Below, one piece after another: positions 5,230 to 17,910 of a DNA stretch of 18,059 nucleotides (its first letter is position 1; the number at the start of each line of letters is the position of its first letter). A model generated the notes under the pieces. The model saw nothing but the letters and a program-made list of their open reading frames with translations, did not search any database and was not told the DNA's origin. This stretch comes from a virus. The translations under genes and the position numbers were made by a program. The stretch lies in the UHGV virus genome UHGV-0072595; one strand, 5' to 3'.

Positions 5230-5664
5230 TTATTCTTGTTCTCTGGTCAAATTATATAGTTGGAAAACAAGGATGCATATATGAATGAACGATGCAGAGG
5301 CAATGCCGATGGCGATAGTGGGTATCATGTAGCCGCTTATGCTGGAAAGAAGCAATAACCCGCAGAAAAACAAAGCTCCAAGCTCAACAAAACTAAGGGC
5401 ATAGACAATAACTACCGATGTCATATACCCATACTCTCTAATCTTGGCCAGTCGGCGCGTTCTGCTTCCGATTAGAAACGTCAAGGCAGCAATCAGGATT
5501 GCAATCATGGTTCCTGCATATGATGACAATGTCGCCCCAAGACCATCTCTATGAGCTGAAAAAGAAACACCAGGAATGTAGTGGCGGAAAAGGAGATAGC
5601 AAATGCTTACGATAACGTAAGGAATTATTACTATGTAAACACCAGGCATGATTCTGTTCCGCAT
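5230..5664 (-). CDS. rexB: RexB (membrane component of the Rex abortive-infection/exclusion system, 144 aa)
   Basis: Track ORF; multi-pass hydrophobic protein of the right size immediately downstream of rexA as in lambda. Confidence 0.9.
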   Translation of the reverse strand: MRNRIMPGVYIVIIPYVIVSICYLLFRHYIPGVSFSAHRDGLGATLSSYAGTMIAILIAALTFLIGSRTRRLAKIREYGYMTSVVIVYALSFVELGALFFCGLLLLSSISGYMIPTIAIGIASASFIHICILVFQLYNLTREQE

Positions 5665-5679
5665 AATTACTCCTGATAA

Positions 5680-6519
5680 TTAATCCTTAACTTTGCCCAC
5701 CTGCCTTTTAAAACATTCCAGTATATCACTTTTCATTCTTGCGTAGCAATATGCCATCTCTTCAGCTATCTCAGCATTGGTGACCTTGTTCAGAGGCGCT
5801 GAGAGATGGCCTTTTTCTGATAGATAATGTTCTGTTAAAATATCTCCGGCCTCATCTTTTGCCCGCAGGCTAATGTCTGAAAATTGAGGTGACGGGTTAA
5901 AAATAATATCCTTGGCAACCTTTTTTATATCCCTTTTAAATTTTGGCTTAATGACTATATCCAATGAGTCAAAAAGCTCCCCTTCAATATCTGTTGCCCC
6001 TAAGACCTTTAATATATCGCCAAATACAGGTAGCTTGGCTTCTACCTTCACCGTTGTTCGGCCGATGAAATGCATATGCATAACATCGTCTTTGGTGGTT
6101 CCCCTCATCAGTGGCTCTATCTGAACGCGCTCTCCACTGCTTAATGACATTCCTTTCCCGATTAAAAAATCTGTCAGATCGGATGTGGTCGGCCCGAAAA
6201 CAGTTCTGGCAAAACCAATGGTGTCGCCTTCAACAAACAAAAAAGATGGGAATCCCAATGATTCGTCATCTGCGAGGCTGTTCTTAATATCTTCAACTGA
6301 AGCTTTAGAGCGATTTATCTTCTGAACCAGACTCTTGTCATTTGTTTTGGTAAAGAGAAAAGTTTTTCCATCGATTTTATGAATATACAAATAATTGGAG
6401 CCAACCTGCAGGTGATGATTATCAGCCAGCAGAGAATTAAGGAAAACAGACAGGTTTATTGAGCGCTTATCTTTCCCTTTATTTTTGCTGCGGTAAGTCG
6501 CATAAAAACCATTCTTCAT
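5680..6519 (-). CDS. rexA: RexA (sensor component of the Rex system, 279 aa)
   Basis: Track ORF MKNGFYATYRSKNKGKDKRSINLSVFLNSLLADNHHLQ...; matches lambda RexA as I recall it; cotranscribed with cI. Confidence 0.9.
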   Translation of the reverse strand: MKNGFYATYRSKNKGKDKRSINLSVFLNSLLADNHHLQVGSNYLYIHKIDGKTFLFTKTNDKSLVQKINRSKASVEDIKNSLADDESLGFPSFLFVEGDTIGFARTVFGPTTSDLTDFLIGKGMSLSSGERVQIEPLMRGTTKDDVMHMHFIGRTTVKVEAKLPVFGDILKVLGATDIEGELFDSLDIVIKPKFKRDIKKVAKDIIFNPSPQFSDISLRAKDEAGDILTEHYLSEKGHLSAPLNKVTNAEIAEEMAYCYARMKSDILECFKRQVGKVKD

Positions 6520-6631
6520 AATTCAATCCATTTACTATGTTATGTTCTGAGGGGAGTGAAAATTCCCCTAATTCGATGAAGATTCTTGCTCAATTGTTAT
6601 CAGCTATGCGCCGACCAGAACACCTTGCCGA

Positions 6632-7348
<717 letters not shown>

Positions 7349-14926: not shown

Positions 14927-15111
14927 ACGCCACAATTCAAACGATACCAGAGCTTCTTATCCAGACACGAGGCAATCAGACCGAAGTGGCTAGGATGCTT
15001 TCCTGCGCAAGAGGAACAGTGCTCAAGTACAACCGAGACAGCAAAGGCGATCGTCACGTAATAGTTAACGGCGTCCTGATGGTCAAACAGGGAAAGAGGG
15101 GAAGACGATGA
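14923..15111 (+). CDS. ninH: NinH-like protein (62 aa)
   Basis: Track ORF; ...GNQTEVARMLSCARGTVLKY... matches the NinH HTH-like core; ATGA overlaps on both sides. Confidence 0.75.
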   Translation: MNATIQTIPELLIQTRGNQTEVARMLSCARGTVLKYNRDSKGDRHVIVNGVLMVKQGKRGRR

Positions 15112-15626
15112 GCATAAGAGAACTAAACCTCACCAAAGAACAGCATGAGTGGCTGAATGGCTGGCTTGAACTGTGGGGCGCATGGGTTTATTCAGGTCGT
15201 CTGGAAAAGCGCATGAGCAGCGTAATAGCGAAGTTCATGGAGAGCGTAGAGCCGGGAAGAGTTATGACAAGGCCAATGTGTAATGATGATGATGGAATGT
15301 TGATTTCTCAGGTCGTCGATTCCGTCATGTACATTGACAAGAAAGCCTTTGGCATCCTCCTCAGCTACTACGCTCATGGTTCATCTAAGCGAGCAATTGC
15401 ATCCTACTATCACGCGACTGCAAAGCCACGCAAGATGTGTGGACGTGGTGGCGAGGGATGGAGAAAACCTTCACTGGCAACCTGTAGAAACGAAATTGAC
15501 GACATCCTGAAAGCGTCATTATTTGTTTTGTACCAACCAATGCAAAATGCTTTCAAAATGCGTAAACGTGTTGAGAAAGTTAAGCATGTTGCTGTTAAAA
15601 ACCTTGACATGCAATTAGCCATTTAG
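15108..15626 (+). CDS. Q: Late antiterminator Q (non-lambda type, 172 aa)
   Basis: Track ORF; last gene of the nin operon, immediately upstream of a pR'-like promoter, terminator hairpin and the lysis cassette; pattern WGAW...P.C.DDD resembles phage 21/82-type Q proteins (from memory). Confidence 0.7.
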   Translation: MSIRELNLTKEQHEWLNGWLELWGAWVYSGRLEKRMSSVIAKFMESVEPGRVMTRPMCNDDDGMLISQVVDSVMYIDKKAFGILLSYYAHGSSKRAIASYYHATAKPRKMCGRGGEGWRKPSLATCRNEIDDILKASLFVLYQPMQNAFKMRKRVEKVKHVAVKNLDMQLAI

Positions 15627-15633
15627 CCATAAT
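15604..15633 (+). promoter_or_regulatory. Candidate late promoter pR' (-35 TTGACA 15604-15609, 18-bp spacer, -10 CATAAT 15628-15633), overlapping the Q stop
   Basis: Hexamers read directly; position relative to Q and downstream terminator fits the lambdoid late-control architecture. Confidence 0.5.
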
Positions 15634-15644
15634 TAGAGGGTAAG

Positions 15645-15689
15645 CTGCCGTTAGTGACTCTTAAGTTGCAACGGTGGCTTTTTTTATTT
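15645..15689 (+). terminator. Terminator-like imperfect hairpin followed by a U-rich tract (TTTTTTTATTT), candidate tR'
   Basis: ctgccgtt...aacggtggc stem with G-U pairs and an extended inner stem, then U-tract, directly downstream of the putative pR'. Confidence 0.45.
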
Positions 15690-15764
15690 GGGTCAGTCGT
15701 ATAAAGGTCATTACGGAAGGCTGTTAACCTTCTTATCGTGGTTCGAGTCCACGCTGTCCCGCCA
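15690..15764 (+). tRNA. tRNA-Asn(GUU)-like gene with encoded CCA; atypical (one U-U mismatch in the acceptor stem, weak D-stem)
   Basis: Manual fold: acceptor GGGTCAG/CTGTCCC, anticodon stem GAAGG/CCTTC with loop CTGTTAA, T-arm CGTGG-TTCGAGT-CCACG, discriminator G, CCA. Confidence 0.5.
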
Positions 15765-15769
15765 AATAT

Positions 15770-15845
15770 GCTGGTTTAGCTCCAATGGTAGAGCAGTCGC
15801 CTTGTAAGCGAATGGGTAGCGGTTCAAGTCCGTTAACCAGCACCA
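15770..15845 (+). tRNA. tRNA-Thr(UGU) gene with encoded CCA
   Basis: Manual fold: perfect 7-bp acceptor GCTGGTT/AACCAGC, D-arm GCTC-CAATGGTA-GAGC, anticodon loop CTTGTAA, T-arm AGCGG-TTCAAGT-CCGTT, discriminator A, CCA. Confidence 0.65.
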
Positions 15846-16089
15846 TAACTGAGCCGTAGCCACTGGCTATCCTGAATTCATCAGTGATAGTTACGCTGCG
15901 GCCTTCTACACATGACCTTCGTGAAAGCGGGTGGCATGAGGTTGCGCTAACAACCTCCTGCCGTTTTGCCCGTGCATATCGGTCACGAACAAATCTGATT
16001 ACTAAACACAGTAGCCTGGATTTGTTCTATCAGTAATCGACCTTATTCCTAATTAAATAGAGCAAATCCCCTCAATGAAGGGGTAGAGC

Positions 16090-16293
16090 ATGTACCGTAT
16101 GGACAAAATCAGAGAATGGTTCAGTTACAGCTTCGGAGGACTGACTGCGATGGGTGGCATTCTCTCCCTGAATGACTGGGCTGTCATCATTGGTATTCTT
16201 TGTACTGTCGGCACATTTGGCATCAACTGGTACTACAAGCGCAAAGAGCGCGAGGACAGATTGAATGGCAATGTCACCGGCACTACGAAATAG
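16090..16293 (+). CDS. S: Holin, class II/pinholin-like, with dual-start motif (M-Y-R-M) predicting antiholin and holin forms
   Basis: Track [70 protein letters not shown]; two TM segments, charged C-terminus; immediately upstream of and overlapping the endolysin gene. Confidence 0.75.
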
Positions 16294-16768
16294 CGTAATA
16301 GCGGCGATAAGTGGCGGGGCTATTGCTATAGCATCTGTGTTAATCACTGGACCAAGTGGTAACGATGGCCTGGAAGGTGTCAGCTACATACCATACAAAG
16401 ATATTGTTGGTGTATGGACTGTATGCCACGGACACACCGGAAAAGACATCATGCTCGGTAAAACGTATACCAAAGCAGAATGCAAAGCCCTCCTGAATAA
16501 AGACCTTGCCACGGTCGCCAGACAAATTAACCCGTACATCAAAGTCGATATACCGGAAACAATGCGCGGCGCTCTTTACTCATTCGTTTACAACGTGGGT
16601 GCTGGCAATTTCAGAACATCGACGCTTCTTCGCAAAATAAACCAGGGCGATATCAAAGGCGCATGTGATCAGCTACGTCGCTGGACATATGCTGGCGGTA
16701 AGCAATGGAAAGGTCTCATGACTCGTCGTGAGATTGAGCGTGAAGTCTGTTTGTGGGGGAAACAATGA
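16265..16768 (+). CDS. R: SAR endolysin (T4-lysozyme-fold muramidase with N-terminal signal-arrest-release domain; phage 21 R-like)
   Basis: Track ORF; Gly/Ala-rich weakly hydrophobic N-terminus [21 protein letters not shown] followed by the lysozyme core; matches my recollection of R21. Confidence 0.85.
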
Positions 16769-17226
16769 GCAGAGTAACCGCGATTATCTCCGCTCTGGTT
16801 ATCTGCATCATCGTCTGCCTGTCATGGGCTGTTAATCATTACCGTGATAACGCCATTACCTACAAAGCCCAGCGCGACAAAAATGCCAGAGAACTGAAGC
16901 TGGCGAACGCGGCAATTACTGACATGCAGATGCGTCAGCGTGATGTTGCTGCGCTCGATGCAAAATACACGAAGGAGTTAGCTGATGCGAAAGCTGAAAA
17001 TGATGCTCTGCGTGATGATGTTGCCGCTGGTCGTCGTCGGTTGCACATCAAAGCAGTCTGTCAGTCAGTGCGTGAAGCCACCACCGCCTCCGGCGTGGAT
17101 AATGCAGCCTCCCCCCGACTGGCAGACACCGCTGAACGGGATTATTTCACCCTCAGAGAGAGGCTGATCACGATGCAAAAACAACTGGAAGGAACCCAGA
17201 AGTATATTAATGAGCAGTGCAGATAG
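16765..17226 (+). CDS. Rz: Rz i-spanin (153 aa)
   Basis: Track ORF 16753..17226 trimmed to ATG 16765 (ATGA overlap with endolysin stop); [49 protein letters not shown]...; lambda Rz. Confidence 0.95.
16985..17167 (+). CDS. Rz1: Rz1 o-spanin lipoprotein embedded in the +1 frame of Rz (60 aa, proline-rich)
   Basis: Track [63 protein letters not shown]; lipobox VVGC; matches lambda Rz1. Confidence 0.9.
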
Positions 17227-17257
17227 AGCTGCCCATATCGATGGGCAACTCATGCAA

Positions 17258-17551
17258 TTATTGTGAGCAATAGACACGCGCTTCCAGCGGAGTATAAATG
17301 CCTAAAGTAATAAAACCGAGCAATCCATTTACGAATGTTTGCTGGGTTTCTGTTTTAACAACATTTTCTGCGCCGCCACAAATTTTGGCTGCATCAACAG
17401 TTTTCTCCTGTCCAATTCCCGAAACGAAGAAGTGATGGGTGATGGTTTCCTTTGGTGTTACTGCTGTCGGTTTGTTTCCAACAGTAAACGTCTGTTGAGC
17501 ACATCCTGTAATAAGCATTGCCAGAGCGGCAGAAAACAACATTTTTTTCAT
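17258..17551 (-). CDS. bor: Bor outer-membrane lipoprotein (serum-resistance/Iss family, 97 aa)
   Basis: Track ORF 17258..17599 trimmed to ATG 17551 (MKKMLFSAALAMLITGCAQQ..., lipobox LITGC; AGGA SD); matches lambda Bor. Confidence 0.9.
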   Translation of the reverse strand: MKKMLFSAALAMLITGCAQQTFTVGNKPTAVTPKETITHHFFVSGIGQEKTVDAAKICGGAENVVKTETQQTFVNGLLGFITLGIYTPLEARVYCSQ

Positions 17552-17910
17552 CTTATTATCCTGCATTGTTAAAAACGGCAGAATCCTATGTGACAACAAT
17601 TAAACGATAGTTAAATGGATTGATGAAAATTAAAACTATATAGGTGGATGCTCAGCCTATTGGAGGAGGGGGGCACTCAGAATCCTGTGGAATGAAATAA
17701 ACCGCTCTTTCTGTCCATTACCCTTTTAGCTGCGCTGTATCGTCGCCGTATTCCCGCATTAACCATGACCGTAGCCCGACGGGGAATTCCTTCTGCGTGA
17801 GTGTGCGGGAATAATCAAAAACGATGCACACCGGGTTTTACTGTGCTGACAGACGCAGGGTTACCCTCATAGTCGCTTTTCCGGTGCGATGGTGGAAGAA
17901 ACCGGGATGT

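Follow-up and report, generated by a model that had tools for sequence, protein, structure and literature searches.

The late region of the viral genome UHGV-0072595, analysed here as one stretch of 18,059 nucleotides (the window), carries the lysis cassette of a phage-21-like lambdoid phage or prophage. The best explanation of this cassette, and in our judgement a probable one, is that it is a mosaic in which a holin of the type found in Salmonella phage PS119 stands behind a hairpin of lambda type and has its timing set by two alternative translation starts; the mechanism is proposed by analogy with better studied holins. The part from 15.1 to 17.6 kb reads as the beginning of a lambdoid late operon, with the order Q, pR', terminator, tRNA-Asn, tRNA-Thr, holin, signal-anchor-release (SAR) endolysin, Rz/Rz1 and, on the opposite strand, bor. 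The 67-aa holin open reading frame (ORF) is preceded by 244 nt of leader. The elements of the cassette itself are the following, in window coordinates.

15847..16085, + strand: lambda-type holin leader, 95.4% identical to lambda 44945-45181, present in PS119 from 15917
16068..16083, + strand: hairpin sequestering the Shine-Dalgarno (SD) element, with a 5-bp stem and a 6-nt loop, in the minimum free energy (MFE) and centroid folds; the G's of its 3' arm are ~100% paired in the ensemble
16078..16084, + strand: SD-like element AAGGGGU, the best anti-SD duplex of the region
16090..16293, + strand: class II holin, long form, 67 aa, MYRMDK..., predicted antiholin; PF16080, PHROG 20 (holin), 100% identical to PS119 gp13, two helices in the AlphaFold2 model
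16099..16293, + strand: class II holin, short form, 64 aa, MDK..., predicted active pinholin-like species; this second in-frame ATG is kept in 39/40 diverged relatives
16265..16768, + strand: SAR endolysin, a glycoside hydrolase family 24 (GH24) lysozyme of 167 aa; PF00959, 95% identical to R21 and 92% to PS119 gp19, PDB 3HDE
16311..16350, + strand: interval of the crossover from PS119-type to phage-21-type sequence, in codons of the SAR domain, delimited by mismatch positions
16765..17226, + strand: Rz inner-membrane spanin (i-spanin), 153 aa; PF03245, E = 3e-54
16985..17167, + strand: Rz1 outer-membrane spanin (o-spanin), 60 aa, in the +1 frame of Rz, lipobox VVGC; PF06085, E = 3e-20

Pfam and PHROGs concur in these assignments (holin, endolysin, Rz-like spanins and, upstream, a Q-like antiterminator). 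The holin scores 75.1 bits (E = 4e-21) against PF16080 (Phage_holin_2_3, the HP1 family), with its residues 5-53 aligned to profile positions 1-49 of 56, and so lies above the Pfam gathering threshold of 28.8 bits; against PF04971 (P21 holin S) it reaches 19.5 bits (E = 0.001), over residues 25-54 only and under the gathering threshold of 26 bits, and a BLASTP comparison with S21 gave no match at E <= 10. It is identical over its full length to gp13 of the P22-like phage PS119 (AJ011581); the same holin-lysozyme pair is found in ST104, SE1, SPN9CC, related Salmonella phages and a few E. coli prophages, and PF16080 is carried by 44 of the 45 database homologues. On these matches the holin is classed with the HP1/PS119 type and not with the phage 21 type. 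The initial annotation had assigned both holin and endolysin to phage 21, which is borne out for the endolysin and not for the holin, and the pairwise comparison with phage 21 S/R and lambda that it proposed turned out correspondingly: R21 at 95%, lambda Rz at 100% and nothing for S21.

Two observations touch on the distance between the HP1 and S21 families. The 12 nt at the second start, ATGGACAAAATC (encoding MDKI; window 16099-16110), are identical in S21 (phage 21 locus L001, 1625-1636), the two proteins being otherwise unalignable by BLAST; these nucleotides may reflect a shared ancestral N-terminus or may be a micro-homology site for recombination. There are also relatives of 84-92 aa starting M-T-R-M-S-T (L136, L138, L142-L157, L162-L164; P0042) in which ~25 additional residues separate the first hydrophobic segment from the conserved second transmembrane domain (TMD2), and one of them, P0042, is annotated with both PF16080 and PF04971; such proteins may bridge the two families.

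The hydropathy peaks of the holin lie at residues 9-25 and 24-40, the AlphaFold2 model places helices at residues 3-22 and 27-58, and the C-terminal tail is charged; the predicted architecture, two transmembrane helices and a charged tail, is that of class II. Its first transmembrane domain (TMD1) is compatible with a weakly hydrophobic, SAR-like helix able to leave the membrane, but less extreme than that of S21, with a Kyte-Doolittle (KD) value of 0.69 and 47% Gly/Ala/Ser/Thr (G/A/S/T), as against 0.49 and 65% in S21; TMD2 has KD values of 1.90 in the holin and 2.02 in S21. In all 37 relatives with a readable downstream gene, the next gene encodes an R21-like lysozyme with a SAR-like N-terminus. 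The protein that gives PF16080 its name, HP1 Hol, kills cells without releasing beta-galactosidase, behaves as a pinholin in experiment and has a SAR endolysin as its partner (PMC7312051). The compatible TMD1, the constant SAR-lysozyme neighbour and the likeness to HP1 Hol and S21 point to a pinholin-like protein, and small holes of ~2 nm, depolarising the membrane while holding back folded endolysin, would be expected of it by analogy, which we hold to be probable as part of the whole explanation given above. The earlier description of the holin as pinholin-like is upheld as far as class II architecture and SAR-lysozyme partner go; the relationship to S21 that came with it finds no counterpart in the sequence matches.

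The dual start that had been proposed for the holin, with a positive charge added to the longer form, is borne out by comparison. The ORF opens with ATG (16090), TAC, CGT and ATG (16099), encoding M-Y-R-M with Arg3 between the two methionines, so that two in-frame starts stand two codons apart and the longer product gains a basic residue (one or two codons and Lys or Arg define the motif in general). The SD element lies 6 nt upstream of the first ATG and 15 nt upstream of the second; the corresponding distances in S21 are 7 and 16 nt. The diverged set consisted of the 45 database homologues and 40 loci from GTDB genomes (Citrobacter, Raoultella, Yersinia, Photorhabdus, Serratia, Pectobacterium, Kluyvera, Erwinia and others), and 39 of these 40 loci, down to ~50% identity, open with Met-(x)-Arg/Lys-Met. 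This start occurs as M[YQH]RM-DK, MRM-DK, MKM-DK and M[TAK][RK]M-ST: the first Met, the Arg or Lys and the second Met are constant, and the spacing and the other residue vary. PMC9636201 describes S107 and S21-71 as antiholins by virtue of an extra N-terminal positive charge. The comparative data support dual-start, positive-charge logic in the holin; that both starts are used and that the long form is an antiholin is suggested by analogy with S21, lambda S and HP1 Hol.

The 5-bp hairpin described earlier over the SD region is present in both the MFE and the centroid fold, cccct at 16068-16072 pairing with agggg at 16079-16083 across a 6-nt loop. AAGGGGU is the sole SD-like element of the region, with -7.6 to -8.0 kcal/mol against the anti-SD, and it forms the 3' arm of the hairpin, with an ensemble probability of being unpaired, P(unpaired), of ~0.00-0.03. 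When the 5' flank alone was shuffled, an equal or better fold of the window leader arose in 2% of trials. Across 34 leaders (32 from the holin's family, together with those of lambda and phage 21), the SD core has a mean P(unpaired) of 0.12, versus 0.30 in shuffles. The stem-loop of lambda that contains the ribosome-binding site (RBS) occupies the same place as the window hairpin; the S105:S107 ratio of lambda is reportedly set by a stem-loop including the RBS (PMC3369941).

The hairpin had been called analogous to that of lambda, and the leaders indicate a closer relation. A 20-mer from the window leader retrieved 120 viral contigs, which with the reference loci and the window gave 122 leaders; 96 of these run into a lambda/P22-type class I holin (ATGAAGATG...) and 26 into a PS119-type class II holin (ATGTACCGTATG...). 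Both groups have the CCCC(U)/(A)GGGG stem; the loop reads UUAUUG in one group and is CAAUGA, CAAUAAA or CUAUGA in the other, and the similarity between the leaders of the two holin types fades from the loop on and is lost by the start codon. Since leader and stem are shared across both holin types, the window hairpin is homologous to the lambda stem-loop. The leaders of the diverged relatives are unrelated to that of the window, and all 31 distinct ones fold with a GGAGGUG SD as the 3' arm of a hairpin. RNAalifold gave no structure for 32 leaders as aligned by MAFFT, the 5' arms being misaligned; a hand-specified structure on a well-aligned subset of 15 sequences was used in its place, together with per-sequence folds. 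In that subset 93% of the cells are paired, versus 39-50% in slid controls, with a G-C to C-G swap at one pair (four sequences) and an A-U to U-A swap at another (one sequence). A covariance model built from it also matches the phage 21 S21 leader (E = 0.0015); this model of S21-like hairpins misses the lambda-type hairpin of the window and lends no direct support to the window stem. An Rfam scan of 15400-16400 found two tRNAs only and no curated family over the hairpin. The folds and leaders taken together support an SD-sequestering structure of the lambda (sdi) type, and by analogy it may act on the choice of start.

The hairpin was also considered as an intrinsic terminator of the plus strand and rejected, the stem having no U-run after it and the terminator-like match at that place lying on the minus strand. 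In three Citrobacter/Kluyvera prophages the covariance model finds a second copy of SD hairpin plus ATG 450-1150 nt upstream of the holin gene (L147:1884-1918, L143:1674-1710, L154:1208-1240). At the copy in L147 no ORF of at least 40 aa starts, and a 91-aa ORF starts 18 nt downstream, at 1936. Such copies may be duplicated leaders left by an insertion between leader and holin gene.

The endolysin is an R21-type SAR lysozyme (GH24) by its sequence relationships. It matches PF00959 at E = 1e-45, as well as the solved R21 structures PDB 3HDE/3HDF (E = 2e-107) and the RrrD structure 4ZPU, and the SAR-type N-terminus that had been noted is recovered as a hydrophobic, Gly/Ala-rich segment (KD 2.43, 53% G/A/S/T). 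Residues E37, D46 and T52 fall in invariant alignment columns; the Glu-Asp-Thr catalytic triad characteristic of T4-type lysozymes is E35/D44/T50 in R21. The gene overlaps the holin gene by 29 nt and begins with two in-frame ATGs (MAM..., 16265-16273, the second at 16271), GAGGA at 16252-16256 lying 8 and 14 nt from them, respectively. RefSeq places the start of the endolysin of E. coli strain STEC719 at the second ATG; relatives read MAM, MAI, MVM or MAV with the same 29-nt holin overlap, and the first ATG is therefore favoured. Before the SAR helix, the PS119-type N-terminus has one basic residue (R8) and that of R21 two (R6, K7).

The lambda-like Rz and embedded Rz1 reported earlier were both confirmed. 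The Rz protein shows 100% identity to its lambda counterpart and 97.4% to that of phage 21, and Rz1, 98.3% identical to lambda Rz1 and 100% to that of phage 21, lies wholly within Rz, as in a two-component embedded spanin.

Bins of 30 nt and the positions of mismatches served to compare the window with phage 21, lambda and PS119, and the closest type changes along the cassette as follows.

15690-15907: phage 21, ~100%
15847-16085: lambda (leader), 95%
15917 to ~16345: PS119, 97-100%
~16330-17839: phage 21, 96.5% overall

Sequence of lambda type is found again at 16765-17605, where it is common to phage 21. Phage 21 shares just the first ~60 nt of the leader, to 15907, and over 15908-16269 it has no nucleotide homology to the window. 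Phage 21 mismatches are dense up to 16310 and PS119 mismatches start at 16351; the right-hand crossover therefore lies within 16311-16350, in SAR-helix codons where the two parents are nearly identical. A further junction is found at the holin start codon, where the lambda-type leader homology ends. By these comparisons the junctions relative to phage 21 are placed at ~15907 and 16311-16350, and ~410 nt (15908 to ~16330) have been replaced by a lambda/P22-type leader, a PS119-type holin and the first ~16-28 endolysin codons. The idea that the cassette is a chimera thus stands, with parents and junctions other than those first named. A module boundary at the end of R was tried and rejected, phage-21-type sequence being found on both sides of the cluster at 16744-16780, which comprises only ~5 nt. 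This small cluster of substitutions falls where the endolysin gene ends and Rz begins; it matches neither phage 21 nor PS119, and a third parent may have contributed it as a short patch.

In the mechanism that we propose, Q-antiterminated transcripts from pR' would read past the tRNAs into the holin gene, whose only SD would be held within the 5-bp hairpin inherited from the lambda leader. The hairpin would set the ratio of long to short product, with initiation split between the first ATG (67 aa, MYRM..., with the extra Arg) and the second (64 aa, MDK...). The short form would be the pinholin-like species, in which the weakly hydrophobic TMD1 would exit the membrane and TMD2 oligomerise, depolarising the membrane, and the long form, its TMD1 exit slowed by the extra N-terminal positive charge, would be the antiholin. 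Depolarisation would free and activate the membrane-tethered SAR endolysin, and Rz/Rz1 would then break the outer membrane.

Three other explanations have to be set against this one. The reading first offered for the cassette was an S21-type pinholin with R21, to which a recombination junction near 16765 would have attached spanins of lambda type. It accommodates the 95% identity of the endolysin to R21, the complete identity of Rz to lambda Rz, the start of lambda nucleotide homology at 16765, and the second start with its next three codons (ATGGACAAAATC, MDKI) being the same as in S21. However, the holin fails the PF04971 cutoff, passes that of PF16080 and has no BLASTP match to S21, phage 21 homology is missing over 15908-16269, and phage 21 itself already has the lambda-like Rz/Rz1/bor behind R (OL657228 is annotated with tRNA-Asn, tRNA-Thr, S21 71/68, SAR endolysin, i/o-spanin and bor), the window being collinear with it across 16765. 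The nucleotide differences agree with this: Rz differs at 5/462 nt from phage 21 and 3/462 from lambda, bor has 9 mismatches to phage 21 and 20 to lambda, and downstream of bor the counts are 1/89 versus 36/89. The proposed junction has consequently to be given up, and we regard this whole reading as highly improbable. It is also unlikely, to a lesser degree, that the gene encodes a class II holin of the canonical large-hole kind, with the SAR endolysin released earlier or in parallel. Class II topology alone is no proof of pinholes, and the family is distinct from that of S21; what speaks against large holes is the SAR-type lysozyme in 37 of 37 relatives, never a cytoplasmic endolysin, together with the finding that HP1 Hol killed cells and released no beta-galactosidase (PMC7312051).

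The third possibility is that a single start is used (Met1, with Met4 internal, or Met4 itself, the start chosen by some gene callers) and that the hairpin is a passenger of the lambda leader, setting at most the overall level of translation. We think this improbable, and it draws on several of the points that weigh against the mosaic, dual-start explanation. The spacing of 15 nt between SD and second ATG is poor, S21 having a similar one, and several database entries begin at MDK (64 aa). By energy the hairpin is not exceptional (z = -1.2 in whole-sequence shuffles) and its stem is short; 95% of the 5'-flank shuffles are beaten by just eight of the 34 leaders. These shuffle tests are weakly significant because C-rich 5' flanks readily pair with the G-rich SD. 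The lambda-type stem of the window has no compensatory changes among the 122 leaders, the loop varying and a few variants weakening the stem. Further points against the mosaic, dual-start explanation are the low to moderate confidence of the AlphaFold2 model (predicted local distance difference test, pLDDT, 68), a TMD1 poorer in Gly/Ala/Ser than that of S21 and so less SAR-like, which would also suit large holes, and a loop of ~4 residues only between TMD1 and TMD2. HP1 Hol functions without a dual start and its reported active topology is unlike that of S21 (PMC7312051), so that the mechanism is not transferable by family membership alone, and the searchable literature yielded no experiment on the holin or on PS119 gp13. 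Against a single start, both ATGs and the Arg/Lys are kept in 39 of 40 relatives despite a change in spacing from one to two codons and a varying neighbour residue, unrelated leaders all put the SD in a hairpin, and the geometry of S21 is similar (7 and 16 nt), both of its products being annotated and, in PMC9636201, cited as holin and antiholin.

The mosaic, dual-start explanation places the cassette among known systems that each share part of it. Genes 13-19-15 of PS119 have, besides the identical holin, the same lambda-type leader, hairpin and dual start and the same 29-nt holin/endolysin overlap, and the first ~16 residues of the window endolysin are PS119-type. They differ from the window, whose endolysin body is phage-21-type from ~16350, whose spanin is the lambda/21 Rz/Rz1 (61% aa identical to PS119 gp15) and which carries upstream the tRNA pair of phage 21 and a Q gene similar to Q21. 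Phage 21 has the same gene order, including both tRNAs, the closely related endolysin and accessory proteins (Rz 97%, Rz1 100%, Bor 99%), and a class II holin with an M-x-x-M-D-K-I dual start, similar SD spacing and an SD-containing hairpin, whereas its holin belongs to another Pfam family, the window leader is lambda-type from 15908, and the extra charge is Arg3 in the window and Lys2 in S21. Lambda shares the leader (95%) up to the hairpin, the CCCC/GGGG stem with the SD in its 3' arm, one extra positive charge in the longer product and the spanins (Rz 100%, Rz1 98%). However, lambda S is a three-TMD class I large-hole holin of unrelated sequence, lambda R is a cytoplasmic transglycosylase, and the lambda starts are one codon apart (MKM), those of the window two (MYRM). 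HP1 Hol/Lys agrees in PF16080 and in a holin gene overlapping a SAR endolysin gene, its small-hole behaviour having been demonstrated by experiment; hol differs in having neither a dual start nor a known antiholin, in its length of 78 aa, in its reported and unusual N-in, C-out active topology and in coming from a P2-like myovirus (PMC7312051).

The neighbouring elements of the late operon are these.

15108..15626, + strand: gene for a late antiterminator of the Q family, 172 aa, with phage 21 Q 85% identical at the protein level; it matches PHROG 943 (anti-termination protein Q-like) at E = 2e-93
15604..15633, + strand: pR'-like late promoter, strong sigma-70-type, TTGACA-18-CATAAT, 11/12 consensus matches; its -35 aligns with the annotated phage 21 pR' -35
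15642..15689, + strand: terminator directly 3' of pR', every base the same as in the annotated terminator of phage 21 (OL657228)
15690..15764, + strand: tRNA-Asn (GTT), by ARAGORN and Rfam tRNA, ~100% identical to phage 21
15770..15845, + strand: tRNA-Thr (TGT), by ARAGORN and Rfam tRNA, ~100% identical to phage 21
17258..17551, - strand: bor/iss lipoprotein gene, PF06291 (Lambda_Bor), E = 6e-31; Bor has 99% aa identity to phage 21 and 92% to lambda

Q is 85% identical to Q21, yet the promoter-proximal direct repeats differ at the place where phage 21 has its annotated Q-binding elements: they read ATTAGCCA/TTTAGCCA in the window (15604-15641) and ATTGAGCA/AATGAGCA in phage 21 (L001 1256-1292), the -35 hexamer and the downstream terminator being identical. 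With such differing repeats near pR', Q specificity may co-vary with its DNA site. Farther away, three minus-strand ORFs of 144, 279 and 237 aa at 5230-7345 correspond in size and order to lambda rexB, rexA and cI, and the top phage matches over this part are annotated as RexA and cI repressor; an immunity region like that of lambda may thus be joined in this phage to a late region like that of phage 21. Among phage records, none on its own spans more than 50% of the window. The whole cassette is found in an E. coli prophage of strain STEC719 (Q, two tRNAs, holin, RrrD, RzpD, Iss), with 97% identity over 100% of the query.

The cassette is textbook lambdoid mosaicism, all of its parts belonging to described families, with the identical holin already deposited in GenBank (PS119 gp13) and an E. 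coli RefSeq genome carrying the same cassette, and the value of the analysis is mainly one of annotation, the holin being reassigned from the S21 type to the HP1/PS119 type. In the searchable literature, the HP1 protein, which has no dual start, is the sole experimentally studied member of the HP1 holin family. We give an even chance to a broader interpretation, in which the enterobacterial branch of this family would be a second dual-start pinholin/antiholin lineage, distinct in sequence from S21, the lambda hairpin with its SD a portable timing module, and the holin and endolysin N-terminus one unit of exchange. If so, the module would join by recombination, at or just before the start codon, to holin genes of class I (lambda/P22 S) or class II, and the crossover in the SAR codons would show the holin and the endolysin N-terminus travelling together. 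One lambda-type control region (hairpin, SD and dual start) is shared by two unrelated holin classes, and the ~40 diverged enterobacterial relatives, with their conserved Met-(x)-Arg/Lys-Met start, SD hairpin and SAR-lysozyme partner, offer a testable second family of putative pinholin/antiholin pairs.

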